From positions 734-64,733 of the forward strand of contig CAZTFC010000003.1 in the NCBI GenBank assembly GCA_964612075.1: a stretch of DNA of 64,000 nt, written 5' to 3'. Below the pieces are notes generated by a model. The model saw only the letters and a program-made list of their open reading frames with translations. It had not been told where the DNA came from and made no database searches. The stretch comes from an uncultured bacterium (GTDB lineage Bacteria; Desulfobacterota; Deferrimicrobia; Deferrimicrobiales; Deferrimicrobiaceae). The position numbers and the translations under genes are program-made. Positions 1 through 14,556 of this stretch are shown here, in pieces; position 1 is the first letter of the stretch, and each line of letters starts with the position of its first letter.

Positions 1-1
1 G

Positions 2-319
2 GAGCTGGCGGTCAAGTGGGAGGCCTTCCGCGAGCAGGAGGAGATGGCCAAGACCGCCGTCGCCGCGGCCACGAAGGTGGCCAACGACCTGGAGACCGCC
101 GAGCTCTCCGAGGAAGTGCTGGGAAGCGGGCCGCTCGGCGGGATGGACGCCGGCAGGGAAAAGGGTTCGGCGTCCGCCAGGAAGGCCGTCGAGCGGTTCG
201 AGGCGGCGGAAAAGATCCTTGCGAAGGACCGGGAAGAGATCAAGCGCATGCTGGCCGGCACGGACGGCTTCTACAAGCCGCTCCAGTTCTACGTTGCCGG
301 CTGCCTTGCGGGGAAATAG
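2..319 (+). CDS. Hypothetical helical protein, 5'-partial (begins upstream of window)
   Basis: Frame open from base 2 (ELAVKWEAFREQEEMAKT...) to TAG at 319; GC3-rich codons; followed by RBS GGAGG of the next gene. Confidence 0.7.
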   Translation, partial: ELAVKWEAFREQEEMAKTAVAAATKVANDLETAELSEEVLGSGPLGGMDAGREKGSASARKAVERFEAAEKILAKDREEIKRMLAGTDGFYKPLQFYVAGCLAGK

Positions 320-347
320 CCAGGGAAAACGGATACGGAGGCGTGTC

Positions 348-1067
348 ATGAAATATGCGGCGATCAAGGCGGGGATCCTTGCGGGACTGATCTGGAGCTG
401 CCTCCCGCCGGCTGCCGGCGCCGATCCCCTGTTTCTCCCCAAGGCGGAGGCGGGCCCCCCTCTGTTGTCCGCGGCAGAGACGGAGGAACTGAAGAAGGAA
501 GCGGAGCTGCTGAAGCGGAAGGCGACGCTCCTTAAGGCGGCCGCGGACAAGAAGTACGCGGCCGCGAAGGCGCTGCGCCAGAAGGCCGGCGTGGTCCGTT
601 CGGAATCCACAAAGAGCGGCGAGGCGCTGCGGAGCAAGGCGGAGCAGAACGCCGCGATGTCGAGCTTCATCGGAGACATGTTCGGCATCATGTCGAGCAT
701 GGGCGGAATGAGCGGGATGGGCTCCATGACGCAGAACGCGATGTTCGCCTCCCAGCTGACCGGCCAGATGATCCAGGGCCAGCAGTCGGCGGACGCGAAG
801 GCCATGGCGAACGCCCACGCCGCGGCCGGCCAGCTCGCCGCGGATGCCGACAAGAAGGCCGGTCCCCTGGAAATGCAGGCCGAGCAGCTCGAGGCCGAGG
901 GGAACCGCCTCATGGAGGCCCACAACCGGATCGTCGGGATCGCGAACGCGAAGTCGCTGCTCGCGGCCTCCGACGAGCTGCTGAGGAAAGTCGACGCCGA
1001 GGACCGGGGGCTGGAGCGGCTGAAAGAGTCCAACCGGCAGTTCGTGGCGTCGATGACGGGGCTCTGA
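348..1067 (+). CDS. Secreted coiled-coil protein with central Met/Gly-rich segment, hypothetical
   Basis: ATG 348 after GGAGG; signal peptide MKYAAIKAGILAGLIWSCLPPAAGA; Ala/Lys/Glu heptads flank MSSFIGDMFGIMSSMGGMSGMGSM. Confidence 0.8.
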   Translation: MKYAAIKAGILAGLIWSCLPPAAGADPLFLPKAEAGPPLLSAAETEELKKEAELLKRKATLLKAAADKKYAAAKALRQKAGVVRSESTKSGEALRSKAEQNAAMSSFIGDMFGIMSSMGGMSGMGSMTQNAMFASQLTGQMIQGQQSADAKAMANAHAAAGQLAADADKKAGPLEMQAEQLEAEGNRLMEAHNRIVGIANAKSLLAASDELLRKVDAEDRGLERLKESNRQFVASMTGL

Positions 1068-1075
1068 TCCTCTTC

Positions 1076-2470
1076 ATGCGCCGCGCCATGGTCCGTTCCG
1101 GATGGGGTCTCGCGGCGCTGGCCGCCCTTTCCCTTTCCGGCCCGTTCCCCCGGGGGGAGGCCGCCGGGCCCGGGGCCGACCGGCTGTGCGAAAGGGCCGT
1201 AAGGGCCGTGAGGGACGCCGGCGACTTCGAGCGGAAATCCGTGGAGCGGCGCAAGTTCCTCGAAGGCCGGGGCGGCGCCGCGTCCGCGGCCGACGCGGCC
1301 CCGGCGGCCTTGTCGGCAGCCGTCGCCGCTTCGATCCGGGCGCAGTCGGCGCAGGCCCGCCAGCTGCTTCCGACGATCCGGAAAGGGATCGCCGCCGCCG
1401 AGAACGACCGGGGGGTCGTTCCCGGCCTGAGCGCGTACTTCCGACAGATGGATATGGTCGTCTCCTCGGCACTGCAGGCCGTCGACGGGTGCCTTGCCGC
1501 CCCCGAGCGCTGCAATCCCCCGCCGGTGGCCTGCCCCGTCCCGCCGGATATCCCGATCTACAGCCACAGGAACGCGTCCGCCGATATGATCCGCCACATC
1601 CAGACGAGCTACCGGCAGGCGGCGAACGAGGCCCGGCAGGCCTGCCTGGCCCTGAACGCCGCGGTGTCGCGCGACCTCCCGCGGCTGAAAAACGGAGGGC
1701 AGGCCGCGAGCGGGGGCGCTGCCGCCGCGGGCGCCGGGGCGCAGCGGTTCGGGGAAACGGACCTTTATCTCGTGAAGGCCGGGAACTTGAGAAGGGAAGC
1801 CGCGCAGCTTCGCCTGGACGCCGACCGGGCGTCCGGCGTCCGCAACTACTGCAGCGTCGGCCCGCGGCCCGCGGCCGCGGCGTCTTCGGCGGGAGCTCCA
1901 GCGAAATCCGGCGGGCGGGGATTGCCCTACGGGGGCAGGGTGGCGGACCTGAAGGCGGGATGGGACTCGAAATGGAGCAAGGGGCCGCTTTCGGCCTCCG
2001 ACGTTCCCTTGCCGGAGGGGTCCGCCGCCTCCGGCGAGGCGTCCGCGACCGATCGGGTCCGGGAGTACCTGGGCGAAAAGGCGCCCTGGTGGTGGTACAA
2101 GGCGAAGTCGATGTACCGGGAGGCGGACGAGAAGGTGGGGCTGACGGAGTTCATCAAGTCGCGGCCGGTGGAGCTCGTGAAGGACGTGGCGGTCGAGTAC
2201 GTGAACAACAACTTCGGCGCGATCGGGAGGAGCGCGACGACGGGCTACAAGATCCTGGGCGTCACGAAGTCCACCGCCGACGAGGTGGGCGAGATCCTCG
2301 TCGCGGCCCCGCAGGTGATCGCGCACGGCAGCGCGGACGACGCAAGGAAGCTGTACGACCGGTCCAACCGCGTCCCCTTGAAGGTGTACAACGAGCTCTT
2401 CGACGACGTCGTGGGCAAGTTCCCGGCCCCCCGGTACGAGTCCGGGGACGGGAAGGGGCTCCCGCAATGA
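1076..2470 (+). CDS. Secreted hypothetical protein (464 aa, Cys-containing)
   Basis: Signal-peptide-like N-terminus; typical codon bias; ATGA overlap with next gene. Confidence 0.75.
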   Translation: MRRAMVRSGWGLAALAALSLSGPFPRGEAAGPGADRLCERAVRAVRDAGDFERKSVERRKFLEGRGGAASAADAAPAALSAAVAASIRAQSAQARQLLPTIRKGIAAAENDRGVVPGLSAYFRQMDMVVSSALQAVDGCLAAPERCNPPPVACPVPPDIPIYSHRNASADMIRHIQTSYRQAANEARQACLALNAAVSRDLPRLKNGGQAASGGAAAAGAGAQRFGETDLYLVKAGNLRREAAQLRLDADRASGVRNYCSVGPRPAAAASSAGAPAKSGGRGLPYGGRVADLKAGWDSKWSKGPLSASDVPLPEGSAASGEASATDRVREYLGEKAPWWWYKAKSMYREADEKVGLTEFIKSRPVELVKDVAVEYVNNNFGAIGRSATTGYKILGVTKSTADEVGEILVAAPQVIAHGSADDARKLYDRSNRVPLKVYNELFDDVVGKFPAPRYESGDGKGLPQ

Positions 2471-3990
2471 ACGGGTTTCCGGGGTCCCGGCGCCTCCCCG
2501 CGTGGGCGCTGCTGGCGTCGCTCCTCTTCTGGGTCCCTGCCGCCGCGTCCGCGGAGCGGATCACCGTCCGGCGGGTGCTCGACACCTCCTCCCTCGGCAG
2601 TCCCTTCGTCTACGACGTCTCCCCGGACGGCGCGGTCCTGGTCCTCACCGGCGACAACCTGTTCGACGCGGGCTCCGGGAAAAACCTCTTCGGCGAGCCG
2701 CTAAGGAACCCCGCGTGGTTCGCCTTCGCGGGAAGGGGCCTTCGCATCCTCGTGGACGGGGTCCTGTACGCCGTGGACGGCGGGGCGCCGCGGAAGCTCC
2801 TGGACGTTCCCTTGAAAAGCTGCCTGTTCGTCCCGGACGGCGACCGGACTTTCATCTCCGGAGTCCTCCCGGACGGGCGGCCAGCGCTGTTCCTTCACCG
2901 GGAGAGGGAGGGGCAAAAGGCGCTGCTTTCCCCCGACGCCCCGATCGACGCCATGGCGCTCGCGAAGGAGACGCTGTACTTTTCCTCGGGGTCCCGGATC
3001 TTCGCCCTGAAGGAGGGCGGTCCCGCCCGGCTCCTCGCCCATCTTCCCCGTTTTTCCCACATACCGTCCGTCGCGGCGGACGAGGTGAACGGGCTGCTCT
3101 ATTTCTCGGACGGCGACGACCTGTACGCGTTGCGGGGCGGGGACATCCTCCTGGTGCGGGAAGGGCTCGGGGGGATGCTCCGCGCTCGCGGAGACGATCT
3201 CTACGTTCTTTCCTGGCGCGGGAACGCCCTGTTCCGGATGACCGGGCTCCCGGCGGCGCTGTCATCCGCGGGCGCGCTCGCGCCGCTTGCGGACCCCTGC
3301 GAAGCGTCCGGATTGTCGCTCCACTGCAGGGCGGCGAAGGCCCGCGCGCTGCTGAAAGCCCTCGCGGACGCTTCCGGAGACCCTTCCGTCGGGACCGCGG
3401 CCTCGCGCGCGGGACTGGAGGACGAGGTGGCGGTGCGGAGGAAGGAGCTTGAAGGGATCCAGGCCTCCCTCGGGAAGGAAGCGGAAGCGGGGTCGGTCGG
3501 GCTCCGGTGGGGCGGCGGCATCCAGGCGAAGACGATCCGGGCGAGCGAGCCGGTCGCGACGGCCCGGGATGGGTCCGGCGTCATGCTGTGGGACGGGAGC
3601 GAGGTCCGGGTCGGGCCGGACTCGAAGGCGGTCATCGGGGATTGTCTCCCGTCGCGGGAATGCCGGATGACATTGGACGGCGGATTGCTGTATCTCGAGT
3701 CGTTCCGGCCGCCCGTGCGAGGCATGGCGGCGCCGGCGCCCGAAGGGTTCGCGATCGCCGCGGAGACGCTGACCCTGGCTTTCCGCTCGGCCCGGCTCGT
3801 GGTGCACGCCGCCGCCGGCCGGACCGTCGTCGCCGTCCTCGAGGGGCGGGTGAAGGCCGTCACGCCGCGGGGGGAAACGGTGATCGTGGCGGCGGGCGAG
3901 ACGTTCGAGGCGGCGAAGGGCGAGCCGACGGGTGCGCCCGCGGCCGCCGACATGAAGCGGCTGAATCCGTGGTGGGAGAGTATCCGATGA
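2467..3990 (+). CDS. Secreted protein: beta-propeller-like N-terminus, helical linker, C-terminal FecR-like domain
   Basis: ATG 2467 overlaps upstream TGA; signal peptide; beta-strand repeats (YDVSPDG..., FVPDGDR..., VAADEVNG...); FecR-like motifs DGSEVRVGPDS and VVAVLEGRV. Confidence 0.7.
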   Translation: MNGFPGSRRLPAWALLASLLFWVPAAASAERITVRRVLDTSSLGSPFVYDVSPDGAVLVLTGDNLFDAGSGKNLFGEPLRNPAWFAFAGRGLRILVDGVLYAVDGGAPRKLLDVPLKSCLFVPDGDRTFISGVLPDGRPALFLHREREGQKALLSPDAPIDAMALAKETLYFSSGSRIFALKEGGPARLLAHLPRFSHIPSVAADEVNGLLYFSDGDDLYALRGGDILLVREGLGGMLRARGDDLYVLSWRGNALFRMTGLPAALSSAGALAPLADPCEASGLSLHCRAAKARALLKALADASGDPSVGTAASRAGLEDEVAVRRKELEGIQASLGKEAEAGSVGLRWGGGIQAKTIRASEPVATARDGSGVMLWDGSEVRVGPDSKAVIGDCLPSRECRMTLDGGLLYLESFRPPVRGMAAPAPEGFAIAAETLTLAFRSARLVVHAAAGRTVVAVLEGRVKAVTPRGETVIVAAGETFEAAKGEPTGAPAAADMKRLNPWWESIR

Positions 3991-4736
3991 AACGCGCGAT
4001 TCGGCACATTACCCTTGCGGTGCTTGCCGCCTCGCTCGCCCTGGCTCTCGTGCTGGCCGCGGGATGCTCCGCCAACAAGAACTTCGTCTACAAACCGAAC
4101 CCTCCCGCCGCGGACGCGCGGTTGCTCCCGGCGAAGGTGGCGGTCCTCCCGTTCGAGGACGGGACGGAAAGCTTCACCTACCGCGGAGAGCTCTTCGGCA
4201 AGGGCCAATACAACCTGGGGAAAGCCGGGGTCGCGGGAGGGATGGCCGCTCTGCCGCCGGAGTTCTGGGGCAAGTCCTTCGCCGACGAGCTCGCGGCGTC
4301 CGGGACTTTCCGGTCGGCCCGTTTCGTCTACAGCAGGTCCGAGGTCGGGGACGAGGATTTCCTGGTCGAGGGCATCCTCATAAAAGCCGACTTCGCCTCC
4401 TCCTGGGAATACCCGAACGAGATCCACGCCTCGTTCCGCGCCACGCGGCTGTCCGACGGGAAGCCGGTATGGGAAAAAGAGGCGGGCGCATCGTGGAAGT
4501 CGCCGGACATTTCCACGGCGTGCGCCGTCAGCATGAAGTGTTCGATCGGGAAGGCGCACGAGGACTGGAACCGGCGGATGAACGCCGTCCTGGCCGAGGC
4601 CCGGATAGACTTCGTCGCCGCGCTGGCGGCCCTTACGGAAGGCGGGCCCGGCGGGAGCGCCGGGACGAAGGCGGCGGAGCGGCCCGCGGGGGAAACGGTG
4701 GACCGGGCGATCGAAAACATTCTCAAGGGCAAATAA
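3987..4736 (+). CDS. Lipoprotein, paralog 1 of 4 (possible CsgG/LpoB/TolB-N-like fold)
   Basis: ATGA overlap; lipobox LAAGC; KVAVLPFEDG; Cx5C; ends GETVDRAIENILKGK. Confidence 0.85.
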   Translation: MKRAIRHITLAVLAASLALALVLAAGCSANKNFVYKPNPPAADARLLPAKVAVLPFEDGTESFTYRGELFGKGQYNLGKAGVAGGMAALPPEFWGKSFADELAASGTFRSARFVYSRSEVGDEDFLVEGILIKADFASSWEYPNEIHASFRATRLSDGKPVWEKEAGASWKSPDISTACAVSMKCSIGKAHEDWNRRMNAVLAEARIDFVAALAALTEGGPGGSAGTKAAERPAGETVDRAIENILKGK

Positions 4737-4756
4737 ACCGGTTGGGAGGGTAATCG

Positions 4757-5497
4757 ATGAGACGCACGGCACGATGGATCGGTTTTGCGGCGTTCGCGGC
4801 GTTCTTGGCCATGGCGGCCGGGTGCGCGGTCAACACGAGCTTCACCTACAAGCCGAACCCGCCCGCGGCGGGCGCGGCGAAGCTCCCGGCGAAGGTGGCG
4901 GTCCTGCCGTTCACCGACGGGACGGAGAACTTCACCAAGCGGGGATCGGCATTCAGCGACGGCCAGTACAACCTGGCGAAAGCCGGGATCTCGGGGAGCA
5001 TGGACGCCCTGACGCCGGAGCTCTGGGGGAAGGCCTTCGCCGACGACCTGGCGGCTTCCGGCAGCTTCCGGTCGGCCCGCTTCGTCTTCGCTCCCTCCGA
5101 GATCAGGGACGAGGGCTACTCCGTCGACGGCACGCTGAAGAAGGTCAATTTCGCGGCCACGTTCGACTACGCGAACGAGATCCTCGTCTCCTTCCGGGCC
5201 ACCAGGGTCTCCGATAAAAAGGTCGTCTGGGAAAAGGAGTCGGGCCGGGTCTGGAAGACCCCGAGGAACGTGTATGCCGGCTGCGGGATGGGGATCCAGT
5301 GCATGACCGACAAGATGCACGGCGACTGGAACAAGGAGATGGTCTCGATCTTCGCCGAGGCGCGGGCGGACCTCGTGGGGACGCTGGCGGGCCTTGCGGA
5401 AGGCGGGACCGCAAGCGGCCCCGCTCCGAAGGCCGCGGGTCAGGCCGCGGGAGAGTCCGTCGACCAGACGATCGACAAGATCCTGAAAGGGAAATGA
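4757..5497 (+). CDS. Lipoprotein, paralog 2 of 4
   Basis: RBS GGGAGG; lipobox MAAGC; KVAVLPFTDG; Cx5C; ends GESVDQTIDKILKGK. Confidence 0.85.
   Translation: MRRTARWIGFAAFAAFLAMAAGCAVNTSFTYKPNPPAAGAAKLPAKVAVLPFTDGTENFTKRGSAFSDGQYNLAKAGISGSMDALTPELWGKAFADDLAASGSFRSARFVFAPSEIRDEGYSVDGTLKKVNFAATFDYANEILVSFRATRVSDKKVVWEKESGRVWKTPRNVYAGCGMGIQCMTDKMHGDWNKEMVSIFAEARADLVGTLAGLAEGGTASGPAPKAAGQAAGESVDQTIDKILKGK
4996..5146 (+). repeat. 151-bp direct repeat, copy A (copy B at 5753-5903), inside lipoprotein paralogs 2 and 3
   Basis: Manual alignment: 149/151 identical, mismatches at 5021/5778 and 5092/5849. Confidence 0.9.
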
Positions 5498-5513
5498 ACC
5501 TGGGAGGGATCGG

Positions 5514-6254
5514 ATGAACCACGCGATGCGATGCGCCGCCGCAGTTGCGGTCGCGGCGTTTCTGGCCATGGCGGCCGGGTGCGCGGTCAACTCGAGCCTG
5601 ACCTACAAGCCGAACCCGCCCGCGGCGGAAGCGCGGAAGCTGCCCGTGAAGCTGGCGGTCCTGCCGTTCACGGACGGGACGGAGAACTTCACGAAGCGAG
5701 GGTCGGCTTTGAGCGACGGCCAATACAATCTGGCCAAGGCCGGGATGTTCAAGAGCATGGACGCCCTGACGCCGGAGTTCTGGGGGAAGGCCTTCGCCGA
5801 CGACCTGGCGGCTTCCGGCAGCTTCCGGTCGGCCCGCTTCGTCTTCGCCCCCTCCGAGATCAGGGACGAGGGCTACTCCGTCGACGGCACGCTGAAGAAG
5901 GTCTATCTGGCGGCCACGTTGAACTACGCGAACGAGATCCTCGTCTCCTTCCGGGGCACCAGGATTTCCGACGGGAAGGTCGTATGGGAAAAGGAAATCG
6001 ACAAGGCGTGGAAAACCCCGATGAGCGTGAATACCGATTGCGGAATGGCGATCCAGTGCCGGATCGACGGGATGCACGCCGACTGGAACAAGTGGATCGC
6101 CGCCGTGTTCTCGGAGGCCCGGGAGGACCTGGAGAAGAAGCTGGCGTCCGCTTCGGGAAGCGGGGCCGGAGGGGCCGCCGCGGGACATGTGGCAGGTCCG
6201 CCCGCCCCGGAATCCGTGGACGGGACGATCGACAGGATCCTCAAGGGGAAGTGA
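5514..6254 (+). CDS. Lipoprotein, paralog 3 of 4
   Basis: RBS GGGAGG; lipobox MAAGC; KLAVLPFTDG; Cx5C; ends ESVDGTIDRILKGK. Confidence 0.85.
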   Translation: MNHAMRCAAAVAVAAFLAMAAGCAVNSSLTYKPNPPAAEARKLPVKLAVLPFTDGTENFTKRGSALSDGQYNLAKAGMFKSMDALTPEFWGKAFADDLAASGSFRSARFVFAPSEIRDEGYSVDGTLKKVYLAATLNYANEILVSFRGTRISDGKVVWEKEIDKAWKTPMSVNTDCGMAIQCRIDGMHADWNKWIAAVFSEAREDLEKKLASASGSGAGGAAAGHVAGPPAPESVDGTIDRILKGK

Positions 6255-6275
6255 AAGGCGAACGGGAGGGCATCG

Positions 6276-7010
6276 ATGAGAGGCATGGCCCGGTGGATCG
6301 GGATTTCCGCGGTTGCGGCCGTTTTCGCGGCAGTTGCGGGCTGCTCGTCCGGCGCCCGGCCGTTCGTCTACAAGGCGAACCCTCCGAAGCCGGGAGCGGA
6401 ACGGTTTTCCTTGAAGGTCGCGGTCCTTGCCTTCAAGGACGGCACCGACGATTTCACGAGGCGGGGGAGCATCTTGAATCCGGATGGGCTGATGCACAAC
6501 GCTGCGAGATCCGGGTGGCTGCCGGCGGAGCTGTGGGCGAAGACGCTTGCGGAAGACCTGTCGTCCTCGGGAGTCTACCGCTCGGTCCGGTTCCTCTACG
6601 ACCGTTCGGAGCTTCGCGACGAGGATTTCCATATCGAAGGCACGTTGGAAAAGGCATACGTTCCCGGCGTTCCGCATGAAAAGCCCACCGAATACGCTTT
6701 CGCGGTCAAGGCCTTCCGCGGACCGAACAGCGAGCCGTTCTGGGAGAAGACGGTCGCGAGGTCGTTCCTGGTCCCGGGAAACCGCTACGACGGGTGCGGT
6801 GCGAAGGTCCGGTGCATGGTGGACCGCAGCGAGGAGGACCTGAACCGGGTGATGCGGGAGATGTTCGCGGAGGCCCGGGAAGACCTGGAGAAGGCGCTGC
6901 CGGGCCTTGCGGCAGGCGGGGTCGCGGAAGGCGCCGCGCCGAAGGCCGGGGCGCAGCCCTCCGGGGAATCCGTCGACCGGACGATCGAGAAGATCCTCCG
7001 GGGGAAGTGA
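6276..7010 (+). CDS. Lipoprotein, paralog 4 of 4 (most divergent)
   Basis: RBS GGGAGG; lipobox AVAGC; KVAVLAFKDG; Cx5C; ends GESVDRTIEKILRGK. Confidence 0.85.
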   Translation: MRGMARWIGISAVAAVFAAVAGCSSGARPFVYKANPPKPGAERFSLKVAVLAFKDGTDDFTRRGSILNPDGLMHNAARSGWLPAELWAKTLAEDLSSSGVYRSVRFLYDRSELRDEDFHIEGTLEKAYVPGVPHEKPTEYAFAVKAFRGPNSEPFWEKTVARSFLVPGNRYDGCGAKVRCMVDRSEEDLNRVMREMFAEAREDLEKALPGLAAGGVAEGAAPKAGAQPSGESVDRTIEKILRGK

Positions 7011-7014
7011 GCGG

Positions 7015-8361
7015 TCAGGCGCCCTTTCCCTTGAAGTACAGGTACACCGGCACGCCCGACAGGACGCAGGCGACCGCCAGCGACGACTCGACCGGACGCT
7101 CGAAGAACGACAGGACGAGGACCCCGGTCCCGGCGGCGAGATAGGCCGCCGGGGCCCACGGGTAGCCGGGAAAGGCGGTTCTTTCGCCCGGGGGCGCGCC
7201 CCGCAACACCTTCAGCCGGAAGACGCCCGCGGCGGCGAGAAGCGGGAAGATCCCCAGCGCGAATCCCATCACGGTCAGGATCTGGTCGAACGTCCCCGTG
7301 AGCGCCATCAGCGAGGAGACGGCGCCCTGCAGGGCGATCGAGCGCCCCGGGGCCCCGGTCGCCGGGTTTACGGCCGCCAGACCCCCGAAGAACAGCCGGT
7401 CCTTCGCCATGGAGTAGTACACCCGGGGGCCCAGGATGAGGAACGCGCTCAGCGACGAGAACAGGGCGAACGCGACCAGGAGCGAGAAGGCGGTCTCCAT
7501 GGAGCGGCCGAAGAGCTTCCCCATGGCCAGCCCGCCGATCGCTATGACCCCCTTCATCTCTTCCGGCGGCACCGCGTAGACGAACACGACGTTGATGAGG
7601 ATGTACAGCGCGGTCACCGCTCCGGTCCCCAGCAGGAGCGACCGAGGGAGCGTTCTCTCCGGGTCGCGGATCTCCGAGCCGATGTAGGTCGCCGCGTTCC
7701 ACCCGCTGTAGGCGAACAGGATCCACATCAGGGAGAGCCCCGCCGTCTTCATCCCCCCGAAGGAGAAGGGAAGCGGGTCCCCTTGCGCGAAGTGGGAGGA
7801 GCTGCCCGACCCGAGCAGGAGGCCGCCCAGTATCAGGCAGGCGATCAGCCCCATCTTGAAAAACGTCAGGACGTTCTGCACCCGCGCGCCGAACTCGATC
7901 CCCCGCAGGTGGATCCCGGTGAAGAGCCAGATCACGGCGATGGAGAGCGCTTTCTTGAAGACCGCGGGGTTCCCCCCGTCGAGGAGCCGGGGGAACGCCT
8001 GGAAGAAGTATTCGGAGCAGCCGATGGCCGACGCCGCGATCGGGGCGGAGAACCCGACGAGGAAGGAGGTCCACCCGGCGAGGAACCCCAGGAGCGGGTG
8101 GTAGAGCCGGGAGAGGAAGACGTACTCGCCGCCCGCCTCCGGCATCGCGGCGCCCAGCGCCCCGTAGGTCAGCGCGCCGCAGAGGGCGACGATTCCCCCG
8201 GCGACCCACAGGGCGAGCATGAGGAGCGGGTCCCCGAGAGCGGCCAGGATCAGCCCGCTGGTGGTGAAGATCCCCGAGCCGACCATGTTGGCGATGACGA
8301 CGTTCGTCACCGGGAACAGGCCGAGCTTCCTCTCCAGGCCTCTGCCGGGTCCGTCTCCCAC
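7015..8361 (-). CDS. APC-family amino acid permease
   Basis: Motifs VIANMVGSGIF, GALTYGALGAAMPEAGGEYVFL, FAYSGWNAATYIGSEIRDP; about 12 TM segments. Confidence 0.92.
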   Translation of the reverse strand: MGDGPGRGLERKLGLFPVTNVVIANMVGSGIFTTSGLILAALGDPLLMLALWVAGGIVALCGALTYGALGAAMPEAGGEYVFLSRLYHPLLGFLAGWTSFLVGFSAPIAASAIGCSEYFFQAFPRLLDGGNPAVFKKALSIAVIWLFTGIHLRGIEFGARVQNVLTFFKMGLIACLILGGLLLGSGSSSHFAQGDPLPFSFGGMKTAGLSLMWILFAYSGWNAATYIGSEIRDPERTLPRSLLLGTGAVTALYILINVVFVYAVPPEEMKGVIAIGGLAMGKLFGRSMETAFSLLVAFALFSSLSAFLILGPRVYYSMAKDRLFFGGLAAVNPATGAPGRSIALQGAVSSLMALTGTFDQILTVMGFALGIFPLLAAAGVFRLKVLRGAPPGERTAFPGYPWAPAAYLAAGTGVLVLSFFERPVESSLAVACVLSGVPVYLYFKGKGA

Positions 8362-8574: not shown

Positions 8575-9699
8575 ATGCAGGGAAACGACGGAAGGGAAGC
8601 CCTGGTGTCGGTGATCCTTCCCACCTACAAGGAAGGGAAGAACCTCGAAGAGATGGCGACGAGGATCTTCCGGTCCCTTGGAGCGGAAGGGCTGAAAGGG
8701 GAGTGCATCGTCGTGGACGACGACTCCGGCGACGACACCGGGTCGGTCTGCGAAAAGCTGGCGCGGGCGCACGACCTGCGGCTGATCGTGAGGAAAGGGG
8801 AGCGGGGGCTGTCGACCGCCGTGATCCGGGGCCTTTCGGAGGCGCGGGGCGATTTCCTCGTCGTGATGGACGCCGACCTGTCCCATCCTCCGGAAAAGAT
8901 CCCCGAAATGGTCCGGCTGGCCGCAAAAGGCGCGGATTTCGTCCTCGGATCGCGCTACGTCGACGGCGGCGAGATCGAGGAGAACTGGGGCTGCTACCGG
9001 AAATTGAACTCGCGGGTCGCGACGCTGCTCGCCTGCTTCCTGACGACGCTCAAGGACCCGATGTCCGGTTTCTTCTGCGTTCCGAAAAGGATATTCGCGG
9101 CCTGCAGGGAGCTATCGCCGCTGGGCTACAAGATCGCGCTTGAGATCCTCGTCAAGTCGGGCGCCAGCAACGTGGTCGAGGTTCCGATCTTCTTCAGCCG
9201 GCGCAAGCACGGCGAAAGCAAGATGAACCTTAGAGAACAGCTCCTGTATATCCGTCACCTGTTCCGCCTGTATCGGTTCCGGTACCCGGCGATCGTGCAG
9301 CTCATGCTGTTCCTCCTGGTCGGGTTTTCGGGGTTCCTCGTCGACACGTTCTTCTATTTTTCGCTCCAGCTTTCCCTGGGCGTCTCCCACCTGGCGGCGA
9401 GGGCGGCCTCCTTCGTCCTGGCCGCGAGCTGGAACTGGTACTGCAACCGGAAGATCACGTTCCTGCAGGCGGGCCGATCGGACGGCCTCGCCCAATGGAC
9501 GAAGTTCCTGGTCATGTCCTCCATCAGCTTCGTGCTGAACTGGGGATCCTACTGTTTCCTCACCACCGCCGTCCCGTTTTTCGCGGAGCACAGGTATCCC
9601 GCCTTCATCGCGGGGATCCTGGTCGGGACCGTGTCGAACTTCACCTTCTCCAAGTACATCGTTTTCAAGGAGCCCGTGGGAGCCGGCTTGCCGCGATGA
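8575..9699 (+). CDS. GT2 polyprenol-phosphate glycosyltransferase (DPM1-like) fused to GtrA-family flippase
   Basis: VSVILPTYKE, VVDDDSGD, VMDADLSHPPE, DPMSGFF; C-terminal 4-TM GtrA-like region (FLLVGFSGFLVD, WNWYCNRKITF, NFTFSKYIVF). Confidence 0.9.
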   Translation: MQGNDGREALVSVILPTYKEGKNLEEMATRIFRSLGAEGLKGECIVVDDDSGDDTGSVCEKLARAHDLRLIVRKGERGLSTAVIRGLSEARGDFLVVMDADLSHPPEKIPEMVRLAAKGADFVLGSRYVDGGEIEENWGCYRKLNSRVATLLACFLTTLKDPMSGFFCVPKRIFAACRELSPLGYKIALEILVKSGASNVVEVPIFFSRRKHGESKMNLREQLLYIRHLFRLYRFRYPAIVQLMLFLLVGFSGFLVDTFFYFSLQLSLGVSHLAARAASFVLAASWNWYCNRKITFLQAGRSDGLAQWTKFLVMSSISFVLNWGSYCFLTTAVPFFAEHRYPAFIAGILVGTVSNFTFSKYIVFKEPVGAGLPR

Positions 9700-11165
9700 G
9701 GGACAACCCGGTGTCGCTTTACCCCAGGATGTCGCTGGTCGCCGTGACCCTGCTGGCGTCGTGCCTGTCGTTCCTGCGCATCGGCGGCGACAGCGTGTGG
9801 TTCGACGAGGCGAACAGCATCTATTTCGCCAAGCTTCCCTGGAGCGAATTCGTCCGGGTGGTGACGACGTACGAAGCCAACCAGGGGATTTATTATCTTC
9901 TGCTGCGGTTCTGGCTCCATCTCGGCGATTCCGAGCCTGTCGCCAGGGCGTTGTCGGCCCTGTTCGCCGTCGGCGCCGTCCCCGTCCTTTACCTGGCCTC
10001 CGAAAGGCTGTTCGGGTCGAGGAACGGCCTGGTCGCGGCGCTGCTGCTGTCGCTGAACGCCTTCTTCCTCCATTTCGCGCAGGAGGCGAGGGGGTACAGC
10101 ATGCTGCTGTTCTGCTCCGTCCTGGCCACGTACCTGTTCATCCGGCTGGTGGAGAACCCTTCGGACAACAGGATCCGGTGCGCGTATGTCCTCGTCGGGG
10201 CCCTGTCGGTCTACGTCCATTTTTTCGCGGCGCTCGTCCTCCTGGCGCATTTCTGCACCCTTCCGTTCCTCCCAGCGGACGGCGTCCGCTTTAAAAAGAT
10301 CCTCGCCGCGCATTTCGCCGTCGGGCTGCTCGTCCTGCCGATCGTGTATTTCATCCTGACGAAGGACCTCGGCCAGATCGACTGGATCCGGAAGCCGTCG
10401 CTGGGCGCGCTGAAAGGGCTGTTCCGGGAGCTCTCCGGGAACACGGCGCACAAAGGGTACAACGAGGAGCTGTATCTCGCCGCGGGGTGCGTCACGGCGT
10501 TGTGCGCGGCGGCATCCCTGTTCCGGTGCGGGCGGTCCGTCGAAGCCTGGCGATACGCGCTGATGTTTTCCGTTGCCGGCGTCCCGCTGCTGGTCACTCT
10601 CGCCGTTTCCGTCCACAAGCCGATCTTCCAGGAAAAATACCTCATCGTCATGCTGCCGGGGCTGGTGATGATCGCGGCGACGGGCGTTTCCTCCGCGAGG
10701 AACCGGCTCCTCTTCGCAGCGGTCCTGTGCCTGTTCGCCGCTTCCTCGACGTTCGCCGTGTTCAAGGGGTATTACCCGAAGTCGAAGGAAAACTACCGGG
10801 ACTCGGTTTCCTACATCGTTTCCGCCTCCCGGCACGGCGACGGGATCATCGTCCACGACCAGGACACGATCCTCCCGGTCGGATACTACCTGGATCGGCA
10901 GTCCCCGGGCGGGGTCGGGCTCGACTTCGTCTACCCGGAGCCGTTGAGCCGGTACGATTATCTGAAGACGTATCCGACGCTCACGGAAACCGCCGCCGCC
11001 GGGTTGAAGGAAAAATACGGACGGATATGGGTGTTCCTGCGGAATTACCGGGGAGGGGAGATCGACCCGGACACCGCCCGGGTGGTTTCGGCGTTGAGCG
11101 GCAGCTACCCGCGGATGGACCGAAGGGATTTCGGCAACCTCGTCGTGTGGCGATTCGCGGAATGA
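9696..11165 (+). CDS. GT-C fold membrane glycosyltransferase (GT39/PMT_2/ArnT-like)
   Basis: ATGA overlap; SVWFDEANS, YYLLLRFW, ARALSALF, AQEARGYSM motifs; multiple TMs. Confidence 0.88.
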   Translation: MRDNPVSLYPRMSLVAVTLLASCLSFLRIGGDSVWFDEANSIYFAKLPWSEFVRVVTTYEANQGIYYLLLRFWLHLGDSEPVARALSALFAVGAVPVLYLASERLFGSRNGLVAALLLSLNAFFLHFAQEARGYSMLLFCSVLATYLFIRLVENPSDNRIRCAYVLVGALSVYVHFFAALVLLAHFCTLPFLPADGVRFKKILAAHFAVGLLVLPIVYFILTKDLGQIDWIRKPSLGALKGLFRELSGNTAHKGYNEELYLAAGCVTALCAAASLFRCGRSVEAWRYALMFSVAGVPLLVTLAVSVHKPIFQEKYLIVMLPGLVMIAATGVSSARNRLLFAAVLCLFAASSTFAVFKGYYPKSKENYRDSVSYIVSASRHGDGIIVHDQDTILPVGYYLDRQSPGGVGLDFVYPEPLSRYDYLKTYPTLTETAAAGLKEKYGRIWVFLRNYRGGEIDPDTARVVSALSGSYPRMDRRDFGNLVVWRFAE

Positions 11166-11283
11166 CCTTCCGGATGCCCGCCTGCCCAGGTCCCCGAACG
11201 CGCATGGTATATTTGATTGAAGGATATTCAATCGCGTTTCGGCATGCCGTCAACGCAACCCTTTTTATCCTGGTAGAGGCCCC

Positions 11284-14200
11284 ATGGCAAGGATCTCATC
11301 GACGGCCCCCTTCATGACCCTGGACGAAGCGGGGGAGGTCACGGGGATCAACGAGGCCTTCGAGCGGCTCCTCGGGTACGCGCAGGCCGATCTCGTTGGG
11401 CGCTCCCGCCTGCCGTTCCTTTCCCGGGGCCACGAGGAAACCCTCCGGGGCATGGTCCTGCAGGCGTTCCGGGGGGATATCCCGGAACCGCTCGATCTTC
11501 CCGCCACCTGCTCCGACGGCGCGGTGAAAGATATCCGCTGGAACGTCGCGCTCGTCCGGGACGAGGGCGAACCGGCTCGATGCGCGGTCGCGGTCTTCGG
11601 GAGCGAGACCGGCACCCGCCGCAGGAAGCGGGAGGGAGCCGCCCTCGGGGAGATCGAGGACCGGTACCGGGTCATTTTCGAGAATTCCGGGGTCGGCCTG
11701 ATGTTCACCGACGAGAAGACGGCGATCGTCCTCGTGAACCGGGAGTTCGAGAAGGCGACCGGCTATTCCAAGGAAGAGACGGAAGGAAGGATGAGCTGGA
11801 CGGCGCTGGTCGCCCGCGAGGACGACCTCGAGCGCATGAAGTCGTACAACCGGCTCCGCAGGATCGACCCGGAGTTCGCGCCGGCGGCGTACACCACGAA
11901 GATCCGGACCAAGGGCGGCGATATTCGGGACATGCTGCTCCGCGTGACGATGATCCCCGGGACCAAAAACAGCCTGGTCTCCTTCGTGGACATGACGGAG
12001 AGGAGGCTGGCGGAGGAAGCCATCCGCGAGCGCGAGGAGAAGTACCGTGCGCTCGTGGACAACATGCAGGACGTCCTATACCGCACCGACCTCGACGGGA
12101 ACCTCGTTTTCGTAAGCCCGTCGGCCGCCGCCGTGTTCGGTTACGGCTCCCCGGAGGAGATGATCGGGGTGAACGTCTCCACGGAGTTCTATTTCGAATC
12201 CGGGGGGAGGGAACCGCTGCTGGAGCGGCTGATGCGGGAAGGGAAGGTGACGAACTACGAGGAGACGCTGAAGCGCAGGGACGGAACCCCGGTGGAAGTC
12301 CAGATCAACAGCCACCTGTATTACGACAGGGACGGGAACGTCTCGGGGGTGGAGGGGATCCTGCGCGACGTCACCGAGAGGAAGCGGTCGGAGAAGCTGC
12401 TCCGGGAAAACGAGGAGCGGCTGCGCGGCATCACCAGGAACATCCCGGGCACCATCTTCCAGTTCTACGTCAGGGACACGGGCGAGTACGCCATGAGCTA
12501 CGTCAGCGAGCGGCTGACGGAGCTGCTCGGCGTCGAGGCCGAGATGGAAGCATTGTTCCCGACCTTCCTCTCCCTCATCCACAAGGAGGACAGGGAGCGG
12601 CTGCTCGCCTCCATCCGGAAGGCGGTGGAGTCGGCGGGACCCTGGAAATTCGAAGGGCGCCTCGGCCTGCCTTCGGGCAGGGAGATGTGGTTCGAGGGCT
12701 TCGCCACGCCGCGGAAGCACGGGGACCGATTGGTCTACGACGGCATCCTGCTCGACATCACGGCGCGCAAGCGGGCGGAGGAGGCGCTGGAGAAGCGCAT
12801 GGTCGCCCTGACCCGCCCCCTGGACGACACCCAGGACATCGCCTTCGAGGAGCTTTTCAACATCGAGGACATCCAGCGCCTGCAGGACGACTTCGCGCGG
12901 GCCACCGGCGTCGCGTCCATCATCACGCACACCGACGGGACCCCGATCACCGTGCCGAGCTGCTTCTCCCGGCTCTGCATCGGCATCATCCGGAAGACCG
13001 AAAAGGGGCGGGCCAACTGCTACAAGTCGGACGCCGCACTGGGCCGCCTTTCCAGGGAAGGGCCGACCGTTCGGCAGTGCATGAGCGGGGGGCTGTGGGA
13101 CGCGGGCGCCGGGATCTCCGTCGGCGGACGGCACATCGCCAACTGGCTGATCGGCCAGGTGCGCGACGAGACACAGACCGAGGAGAAGATGCGCGAATAC
13201 GCCCGGGAGATCGGGGTCGACGAGGAGGAGTTCCTCCGGGCGTTCCGGGAGGTGCCCGCCATGTCGCGCGAGCGGTTCGACCGGGTCGCGCGGGCCCTGT
13301 TCACGCTGGCGAACCAGCTCTCCACGCTGGCGTACCAGAACGTCCAGCAGGCGCGCTTCATCACGGAGCGCAGGAAGGCGGAGGAGGAGCGCCGCAAGCT
13401 CGAGGAGCGGCTGTTCCTCTCCGAGAAGATGAAGGCGATCGGCCAGCTCGCCGGCGGCGTCGCGCACGATTTCAACAACCTCCTGATGGGCATCCTCGGG
13501 AACGCCTCCCTGGTGCAGATGGAGTTCGATCCCTCGCACCCGAGCTACCAGCGGCTATCGCAGATCGAGGAGCACGTGAAGCGCGGCGCCAACCTGACGA
13601 GGCAGCTCCTCGGGTTCGCGCGGGGCGGGAAATACGAGGTCCGGGCCCTGTCCGTGAACGACCTGGTCCGCAGGAGCGCGCAGCTGTTCCTCGAAACGCG
13701 GAAGGGGATCGAGGCCGCGTTCCTGCTTCGGGACGACGTCCGCCCGGTGGAGGCGGACGCCGGGCAGATCGAGCAGGTGCTCCTCAACATCTTCATCAAC
13801 GCCGGCCACGCCATGCCCGGGGGCGGCTCCCTCGACATCCGGACGTCCAACGTGACGCTGTCGGAATCCGACGCCAGGGCCTTCGAGACGAAACCCGGGG
13901 AATACGTCAAGATCTCCGTCACGGACACGGGTACGGGGATGGACCGGGAGACCCTCTCGCGGATCTTCGACCCCTTCTTCACGACGAAATCGGAGCAGGG
14001 GGGGACCGGCCTCGGCCTGGCCTCGGCCTACGGGATCGTCCGGAACCACGGGGGAGCCATCAACGCGCACAGCGAGCCGGGGCGCGGCTCCACCTTCAAC
14101 ATCTATCTCCCGGCCTCCGGGAAGGCGCTCGAGAAGGAGACCGCCGCGAAGCCGGGGGACGAGCTTCTCCGCGGCAGCGGGAGGATCCTGCTGGTGGACG

Positions 14201-14556
14201 ACGAGCCGATGATCCTCGATTCCGCCGCCGGTCTGCTGGAGTCGCTCGGCTATACCGTGTACCGGGCCTCGACGGGCCAGGAAGCGGCAGCGACCTACCG
14301 CGAGAAGCGGGAAGGAATCGACCTGGTCATCCTCGACATGATCCTGCCCGGGATGGGCGGCTCGGAGGTGCTGCGGGCGCTCAAGGAGATCGATCCCGGC
14401 GTCCGGGTCGTACTCTCCAGCGGCTACGGCCTGCAGGACGACGTTCGGAGCGTCATGGAGGCGGGGTGCTGCGCCTTCGTGCAGAAGCCGTACAAGTTCG
14501 CGGACCTCTCCAGGATCATTCGCCAGGTCATCTCCCGCCCCCGGGATCCCCGTTAA
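11284..14556 (+). CDS. Hybrid sensor histidine kinase (multiple PAS, PocR, HisKA, HATPase, REC)
   Basis: PAS repeats; PocR-like IQRLQDDFARATGVASII...CMSGGLWDAG; H-box AGGVAHDFNNLL; G-box GTGLGL; REC ILDMILPGM. Confidence 0.93.
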   Translation: MARISSTAPFMTLDEAGEVTGINEAFERLLGYAQADLVGRSRLPFLSRGHEETLRGMVLQAFRGDIPEPLDLPATCSDGAVKDIRWNVALVRDEGEPARCAVAVFGSETGTRRRKREGAALGEIEDRYRVIFENSGVGLMFTDEKTAIVLVNREFEKATGYSKEETEGRMSWTALVAREDDLERMKSYNRLRRIDPEFAPAAYTTKIRTKGGDIRDMLLRVTMIPGTKNSLVSFVDMTERRLAEEAIREREEKYRALVDNMQDVLYRTDLDGNLVFVSPSAAAVFGYGSPEEMIGVNVSTEFYFESGGREPLLERLMREGKVTNYEETLKRRDGTPVEVQINSHLYYDRDGNVSGVEGILRDVTERKRSEKLLRENEERLRGITRNIPGTIFQFYVRDTGEYAMSYVSERLTELLGVEAEMEALFPTFLSLIHKEDRERLLASIRKAVESAGPWKFEGRLGLPSGREMWFEGFATPRKHGDRLVYDGILLDITARKRAEEALEKRMVALTRPLDDTQDIAFEELFNIEDIQRLQDDFARATGVASIITHTDGTPITVPSCFSRLCIGIIRKTEKGRANCYKSDAALGRLSREGPTVRQCMSGGLWDAGAGISVGGRHIANWLIGQVRDETQTEEKMREYAREIGVDEEEFLRAFREVPAMSRERFDRVARALFTLANQLSTLAYQNVQQARFITERRKAEEERRKLEERLFLSEKMKAIGQLAGGVAHDFNNLLMGILGNASLVQMEFDPSHPSYQRLSQIEEHVKRGANLTRQLLGFARGGKYEVRALSVNDLVRRSAQLFLETRKGIEAAFLLRDDVRPVEADAGQIEQVLLNIFINAGHAMPGGGSLDIRTSNVTLSESDARAFETKPGEYVKISVTDTGTGMDRETLSRIFDPFFTTKSEQGGTGLGLASAYGIVRNHGGAINAHSEPGRGSTFNIYLPASGKALEKETAAKPGDELLRGSGRILLVDDEPMILDSAAGLLESLGYTVYRASTGQEAAATYREKREGIDLVILDMILPGMGGSEVLRALKEIDPGVRVVLSSGYGLQDDVRSVMEAGCCAFVQKPYKFADLSRIIRQVISRPRDPR

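Follow-up and report, generated by a model that had tools for sequence, protein, structure and literature searches.

A conserved, lineage-restricted operon of exported proteins in the Deferrimicrobiota that most likely builds an outer-membrane-anchored complex

Positions 2..7010 of the DNA analysed here, a 64,000-nucleotide stretch from an uncultured member of the Deferrimicrobiaceae (positions 734 to 64,733 of contig CAZTFC010000003.1, assembly GCA_964612075.1; henceforth the window), hold eight genes on the + strand, g0 to g7, that are laid out as a single operon of exported proteins. A preliminary description of this DNA had counted at least eight co-oriented genes with gaps of 28 bp or less and two ATGA overlaps, and the list of open reading frames (ORFs) together with a coordinate script confirmed this count: the successive gaps measure 28, 8, -4, -4, 20, 16, and 21 bp, and both -4 bp overlaps (g2/g3 and g3/g4) are ATGA. 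ATG is the start codon of all seven genes that begin inside the window, and a GGAG-type ribosome-binding site precedes most of them. The first gene, g0 (<2..319), is present as its 3' end, the last 105 codons of a gene encoding a 407-residue lipoprotein with repeats resembling tetratricopeptide (TPR) repeats. It is followed by g1 (348..1067), encoding a secreted protein of 239 residues (signal peptide AGA|D), g2 (1076..2470), encoding a secreted, predicted all-helical protein of 464 residues (signal peptide GEA|A), and g3 (2467..3990), encoding a secreted protein of 507 residues with a repeat region and a FecR-type domain (signal peptide ASA|E). Four lipoprotein genes complete the operon: g4 (3987..4736; 249 residues, lipobox LAAG|C, C-terminal tail ETVDRAIENILKGK), g5 (4757..5497; 246 residues, lipobox MAAG|C), g6 (5514..6254; 246 residues, lipobox MAAG|C), and g7 (6276..7010; 244 residues, lipobox AVAG|C, tail ESVDRTIEKILRGK).

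The locus had been expected to continue upstream of the window, and it does so by exactly one gene, g0. Its missing part was recovered from contigs encoding an identical g1, with the full gene lying at 613-1836 of one of them (L001); upstream of it come ~490 bp of non-coding DNA and then a divergent gene. The operon therefore comprises eight genes, g0 alone being cut by the window edge. At the other end, a convergent gene for an amino-acid permease has its end at 7015, 4 bp past g7, so that the operon stops at 7010. No promoter- or terminator-like site inside the operon rose above the shuffle expectation, and when upstream regions were aligned in search of a common promoter or operator, the ribosome-binding site alone was conserved. 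Scans of the window for Rfam families and tRNAs came back empty, and a tblastn search of the whole window with the eight proteins did not find extra copies. The G+C content at third codon positions is 0.83-0.90 in the called frames of the eight genes, similar to neighbouring genes, and thus gives no hint of foreign origin. As a side effect of the high G+C content, very long spurious ORFs occur on both strands of 1..7000, among them a 962-residue frame at 1102..3990 containing g3 and antisense ORFs of 400-540 residues; the lengths of the homologues identify the shorter gene calls as the real ones.

Every product of the operon carries an export signal. The signal peptides and lipoboxes of g1 to g7 were read straight off the sequence, bearing out the earlier statement that all seven complete genes encode one or the other, and g0 adds a lipobox (LFAG|C) that is invariant in 11 orthologues, bringing the count to eight of eight. 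Five of the products (g0 and g4 to g7) are lipoproteins without Asp at position +2, and by the +2 rule of Escherichia coli they would be sorted to the outer membrane, if that rule holds in this phylum. Conserved Cys residues occur in even numbers across the products, which fits periplasmic disulfides.

The same genes recur together, in the same order, in relatives. A search of 5.8 billion protein clusters with g3 returned 83 clusters of homologues, nearly all of 500-510 residues and 38-82% identical; the lipoprotein family accounts for 199 clusters in the same collection, and its profile matched 139 of 1.84 billion representative proteins at E <= 1e-3 (51 at E <= 1e-30). We compared the surroundings of ten homologues, 11 loci from a genome collection and 44 metagenome loci found with g1 as probe. 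Every contig long enough to judge (more than 50 fetched, counting the 11 genome and 44 metagenome loci) has the order g0-g1-g2-g3-lipoprotein(s), with near-fixed lengths of 405 residues for g0, ~237 for g1 and ~507 for g3 and with one to six lipoprotein genes. This gene arrangement is far beyond chance. By contrast, the flanks change from genome to genome and include flagellar genes, transporters, assorted histidine kinases and an ammonium transporter; the constant order within differing flanks marks the genes as a self-contained cassette. The preliminary description had taken the locus for a co-expressed set of exported proteins and had named two outcomes that would speak against it, a lack of synteny in relatives and the assignment of each gene to an unrelated, well-characterised family. 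Gene coupling, export signals and the neighbourhood comparison bear out a conserved cassette of exported proteins that looks co-transcribed. Synteny is kept in all relatives, and none of the genes falls in a well-characterised family.

All sources of the cassette are metagenome-assembled genomes (MAGs) or metagenomes. At least two of them bear the names Candidatus Deferrimicrobiaceae or Deferrimicrobium, and other bins carry the older labels 'Deltaproteobacteria', 'Desulfuromonadaceae' and 'Geobacteraceae'. Deferrimicrobiota is a candidate phylum, formerly MBNT15, of uncultured, predicted iron reducers (PMC9386147), and the gene order of the cassette is among the most rigidly conserved in the genomes of this iron-cycling phylum. 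Conservation is unevenly spread over the components: mean column identity falls from 76% in g1 and 70% in g0 through 61% in g3 to 39-58% in g2 (two alignments) and 44% in the lipoproteins, a gradient that fits a constrained core with a variable periphery. None of the eight window proteins reached a cut-off in the Pfam and NCBIfam scans; at the level of families, seven of the eight lack an above-threshold match altogether, and FecR passes in relatives of g3. PADLOC and PHROG scans of the window proteins were likewise without a match, as was tblastn of g3 and g5 against plasmids. Some relatives have additional genes next to the cassette. A Peptidase_M48 gene lies 5 bp past the last cassette lipoprotein in a single genome (L073:13121-13981, on the same contig as L020), where it may encode an accessory protease. 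Directly upstream of the cassette at L010:2414-6444 (also in L011) are genes for a 147-residue FecR-domain protein, an OmpA-domain protein and a CHASE2 hybrid histidine kinase, a trio that neighbours the cassette in one lineage and is not kept elsewhere.

The four lipoproteins g4 to g7 are paralogs, as had been proposed, with 38-72% identity among them (57% between g4 and g5, 72% between g5 and g6), and the Gly-Cys of the lipobox is invariant in 40 homologues. The most divergent paralog is g7, at 38-47% identity to the others, and it is orthologous to the third copy (L012_3) in the closest relative, L012. Three copies are present in that relative, none of them a separate orthologue of g6, which branches next to the pair formed by g5 and L012_2; together with the 72% identity, this indicates that g6 is a recent tandem duplicate of g5. 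A distance tree of the lipoproteins shows some old subtypes as well as lineage-specific duplications. An extra, unlinked homologue of 250 residues, 67% identical to one of the window paralogs, is encoded at L025:15216-15968, ~4.5 kb downstream of the cassette and just before a gene for a PAS/PocR hybrid kinase. A few distant relatives have the alpha/beta domain of the lipoproteins fused to caspase or DUF4136 domains.

Structure modelling followed by comparison of folds had been suggested for each protein of the locus, and for a lipoprotein, g5, it yielded a match. The AlphaFold2 (AF2) model of g5, for which 40 sequences were aligned, reaches a mean predicted local distance difference test (pLDDT) score of 81.5 and a predicted template modelling (pTM) score of 0.74. 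It begins with a lipid-anchored stretch bearing a conserved FxYKPxxP motif, continues with an alpha/beta domain, whose strand beta1 is the conserved KVAVLPFxDGT, and a long helix, and ends with a disordered Gly/Ala/Ser/Pro linker of ~20-30 residues and a terminal helix; an invariant Cys pair of the family corresponds to C176 and C182 of g5. In a Foldseek search of the PDB, the best match to this model was XCC0632/DUF330 (2iqi; E 2e-8, target TM score 0.69). At E 1e-5 to 1e-4 the model also matched PqiC of E. cloacae and E. coli, PelC from two species, the PelBC complex, CsgG, FlgT, GNA1162 and HpaA; individual values were 9e-6 for 6osx, ~1e-5 for the PelC structures 5t10, 5t11, 5t0z and 9h80, 5e-5 for PqiC 8q2c, and 6e-5 for the CsgG pre-pore. 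As modelled, the tandem lipoproteins have the PqiC/PelC/CsgG/XCC0632 fold class of outer-membrane lipoproteins. Searches of the PDB by sequence or profile with the lipoproteins, with g2 and with g3 gave signal-peptide or chance-level matches only.

A second shared feature of the lipoproteins lies at their C-terminus. Each paralog ends in an amphipathic ESVEQTIDRILKGK tail carried on the disordered, flexible linker, and the consensus of this tail, ES(V/A)(E/D)xTI(D/E)xILKGK, is nearly invariant in the 40 lipoproteins. When all fetched DNA was scanned with a regular expression, the tail was found on cassette lipoproteins and on one secreted PDZ protein, and nowhere else. This PDZ protein (L025:9447-9908) is free-standing, 153 residues long, encoded between g3 and a lipoprotein gene, and ends in ...SVEETIDRILKEK; elsewhere among the relatives, the lipoprotein linker itself contains an inserted PDZ domain, directly before the tail. 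From this distribution the tail behaves as a portable module, and its near-invariance and its restriction to these proteins fit a predicted docking peptide. Its receptor is probably not the PDZ domain, since PDZ ligands are expected to end in a hydrophobic residue and the tail ends in Lys.

The two most conserved components are encoded at the head of the cassette. The full-length g0 protein has four N-terminal TPR-like repeats followed by a highly conserved helical C-terminal domain; its profile matches the TPR domain of CpoB (6g5s) at E 6.7e-6, and nine of 11 members have weak, below-cut-off matches to YfiO/BamD. The g1 protein, the most conserved of all (11 orthologues), belongs to no Pfam or NCBIfam family and looks helical or coiled-coil, with a central hydrophobic segment rich in Met, Gly and Ser. 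This hydrophobic stretch has a weak match (E 0.016), to be read as a lead only, to the transmembrane-hairpin region of AopB, a translocator of type III secretion systems. Profile-profile comparison among the helical g0, g1 and g2 detected no homology.

The g2 protein combines a constant and an exchangeable part. Its conserved, disulfide-rich N-terminal module of ~310 residues, with six conserved Cys, leads via a PLP motif and a disordered linker to a head at the C-terminus, and this head has at least four alternative forms among relatives. Head A is predicted to be helical, is well conserved, and occurs in ~80% of operons, that of the window included (g2 of 464 residues in the window, ~475 in general). 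Head B, which has an invariant His and an invariant Cys, is found in g2 proteins of 570-586 residues at L016, L036, L062, L069 and L070. Heads C (g2 of 772 residues; L021 and L038) and D (g2 of 849 residues; L071) have no family match, and Pfam has no match for any of the four types. The MAG WY5.bin129 has two cassettes, one with head A (L014) and one with head B (L016, 570-residue g2). Two assignments of heads to enzyme families were considered and set aside: that of head B to the permuted NlpC/P60-type cysteine peptidases, for which the weak match to 3kw0 (E 0.43) is a lead only, and that of the head of the 849-residue protein to the alpha/beta hydrolases, guessed from an AHSNG motif and given no support by Pfam and PDB searches. 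In some relatives the g2 head may be a papain-like hydrolase.

A conserved N-terminus with at least four alternative C-termini is also what a polymorphic toxin would show, and the preliminary description had likened the tandem lipoproteins to a poly-immunity array. Under that explanation, g2 would be the toxin and the lipoproteins its immunity proteins; head B has its invariant His and Cys and its weak peptidase match, and lipoprotein copy number does shift quickly by lineage-specific duplication. However, the distribution of heads and lipoproteins runs the other way. About 80% of operons have the same well-conserved head A, the gene directly after g2 is always g3 and not a variable immunity gene, and one lipoprotein family stands behind all four head types, to the point that L016_1, from an operon with head B, is closest to L014_1, from an operon with head A. 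The lipoproteins moreover have a common ring-type fold, of the PqiC/PelC/CsgG kind, and a common, nearly invariant predicted docking tail, and no toxin, PADLOC or PHROG family matches the cassette. We therefore disfavour the poly-immunity array and consider a toxin-immunity system improbable.

The remaining component, g3, had been labelled a propeller-FecR protein, and the label is reasonable. Of 26 family members, 24 match FecR (PF04773), with a best E of 1.7e-8; the window copy, at 22.4 bits, falls just short of the Pfam cut-off of 24. The N-terminal 260 residues contain a ~44-residue repeat (hhalign self-comparison, probability 90%) and have weak matches to propeller families, namely APH-like_N in ten of the 26 members and strictosidine synthase; this domain is likely a beta-propeller. 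A Cys-containing linker joins it to the C-terminal FecR-type domain, and the two conserved Cys pairs of g3 fit a periplasmic protein. The FecR domain, together with the sensor kinases found near the cassette in several genomes, raises the idea of a trans-envelope signalling system of the FecR kind, which had also been entertained for this locus. Like the FecR/PupR anti-sigma regulators, g3 has the periplasmic FecR domain. Unlike them, it is fully secreted: a cleavable signal peptide leads directly into the repeat domain, and the propeller-like N-terminal half takes the place of the anti-sigma domain and the transmembrane anchor, neither of which is present. No extracytoplasmic function sigma factor and no TonB-dependent transducer or receptor adjoins the cassette in any locus (loci with Pfam tables and the window flank), and the nearby kinases differ between genomes. 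The signalling explanation is thus largely refuted by domain architecture and is highly unlikely.

Taken together, this conserved, lineage-restricted operon most likely builds an outer-membrane-anchored complex of previously undescribed composition. As the best reading, to which we assign a probability of about 0.35, we propose a ring-and-stalk periplasmic complex, anchored in the outer membrane, that positions the g2 head. It would be a Sec-exported, energy-independent assembly at the periplasmic face of the outer membrane, on whose inner face the lipoproteins would oligomerise into a ring or cluster. Since one copy is enough in some genomes, the paralogs would either replace one another in this ring or be mixed within it. 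Their tails would dock onto a common receptor in the conserved core, the g3 propeller being the most plausible peptide-binding platform, while the constrained scaffold would consist of the TPR lipoprotein g0 and the helical g1 with its hydrophobic centre. Into it would plug the helical N-terminal module of g2, in the way that the coiled coil of PqiB enters the ring of PqiC, and the head would thereby come to lie at either the outer membrane or the cell wall. The role of such an assembly is likely envelope maintenance or remodelling rather than signalling.

The precedents for such a ring come from the structural matches. XCC0632, PqiC and PelC form rings of 8 to 12 subunits beneath the outer membrane; in curli, CsgG is the channel lipoprotein. 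PqiC assembles into an octameric toroid that presumably takes up the coiled coil of PqiB (PMC10897342), and PelC forms a dodecamer around PelB (PMC12141448). The cassette resembles the outer-membrane ends of the Pqi and Pel systems in that a PqiC/PelC-fold lipoprotein is combined with helical or TPR partners. PqiC/XCC0632 (DUF330) proteins are outer-membrane lipoproteins and the best structural match to the cassette lipoprotein model, and, as in PqiABC, such lipoproteins are paired with long helical secreted proteins. However, the cassette lipoproteins have no Pfam DUF330 or NCBIfam match and no PDB sequence match beyond the signal peptide, they add a disulfide loop, a disordered linker and the conserved C-terminal tail, and they occur as one to six tandem paralogs; no MCE protein, PqiA or ABC transporter is encoded in or near any cassette. 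The likeness to Pel extends from the PelC fold match to the partner, PelC being accompanied by the TPR-containing PelB and the cassette lipoproteins by the TPR-like g0. Against it, g0 is a lipoprotein rather than part of a porin fusion, and no PelB beta-barrel, glycosyltransferase or other pel gene lies in or beside the cassette.

Curli offers a different precedent. In a Sec-dependent, two-step secretion or surface-assembly system resembling this type VIII secretion system, the lipoproteins would form or gate a conduit in the outer membrane, g0 and g3 would be periplasmic adaptors, and g1, g2 or both would reach the cell surface, where they would serve as a fibre, an adhesin or an effector whose heads are exchangeable. 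Much in the cassette accords with this. CsgG, PelC and PqiC, all of them matched by the lipoprotein model, are all found at outer-membrane transport conduits, the CsgG pre-pore being among the structures recovered; the operon, like that of curli (CsgG, CsgE/F), consists of a lipoprotein and small secreted proteins, with all components Sec substrates and no ATPase encoded; the g2 head is polymorphic, as adhesins and secreted effectors are; and the hairpin-like hydrophobic centre of g1 is weakly translocator-like. Yet the cassette encodes no outer-membrane beta-barrel, and its lipoproteins have no CsgG Pfam match and, in the model, no sign of transmembrane hairpins; CsgG is also the weaker fold match (TM score 0.3-0.4). 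Amyloid-type repeats and CsgE/F homologues are absent from the cassette as well, the Pfam and NCBIfam scans showed no other curli-like partner family, and with its 76% identity g1 is conserved to a degree unusual for a surface-exposed major subunit. Secretion or surface assembly of this kind, the latter already among the earlier proposals for this locus, we hold to be somewhat less probable than the ring-and-stalk complex.

Other envelope systems share single parts with the cassette. The resemblance of g0 to components of Tol-Pal/CpoB and of the beta-barrel assembly machinery (BAM) is at the TPR level only, and Pal, TolA/Q/R and BamA are all missing from the cassette. NlpI-Prc and LbcA-CtpA pair a TPR-lipoprotein adaptor with a PDZ-domain protease and are loosely analogous to parts found among the relatives, namely a TPR lipoprotein of the outer membrane, PDZ modules and what may be an NlpC/P60-like domain. 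Unlike these, the cassette has no S41 protease domain, and its PDZ domain is optional and not present in the window. The cassette is thus not a member of the Pqi/MCE, Pel, curli, FecR-signalling, polymorphic-toxin or Tol-Pal/BAM systems.

Several observations weigh against a ring-and-stalk complex and keep its probability low. The similarity of the lipoprotein model to its fold matches is moderate (query TM score 0.3-0.5), and the fold is not confined to ring formers. LpoB and the N-terminal domain of TolB, which are not known to form rings, have the same fold. LptE, named as a structural homologue of PqiC (PMC10897342), shares it too and is a non-ring protein. The variation in lipoprotein copy number from one to six speaks against a ring of fixed hetero-stoichiometry. 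For the stalk, the AF2 model of g2 is all-helical and of low confidence (mean pLDDT 62, pTM 0.30), and a Foldseek search of the PDB with it returned generic helical bundles only, at E above 0.3; no enzymatic domain is demonstrable in the copy that the window itself carries. Slightly less probable, yet with a fair chance of being right, is the fuller proposition that the cassette encodes a hitherto undescribed envelope machine restricted to the Deferrimicrobiota (MBNT15), composed of a tail-recruited ring of PqiC/PelC-fold lipoproteins, a core of TPR lipoprotein and helical protein, a propeller-FecR receptor and a g2 stalk with exchangeable catalytic or binding heads, and without a functional counterpart among known secretion, transport and cell-wall systems.

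If the ring-and-stalk complex is real, it would put the PqiC/PelC lipoprotein fold to a new use that involves neither an MCE tube nor a polysaccharide porin, and it would exemplify how a short C-terminal docking peptide can recruit periplasmic modules that replace one another. With its swappable head, g2 would provide a natural handle on what the assembly acts upon. The composition is new; its interest is limited by the uncultured state of the hosts and by the lack of a link to a long-standing open question.

Beyond the permease, the window continues at 8578..14556 with three ordinary envelope and signalling genes that are unrelated to the cassette. They encode a fusion of a GT2 glycosyltransferase with a GtrA-type membrane domain, a PMT_2 (ArnT-like) glycosyltransferase and a 1090-residue PAS-PocR hybrid histidine kinase.

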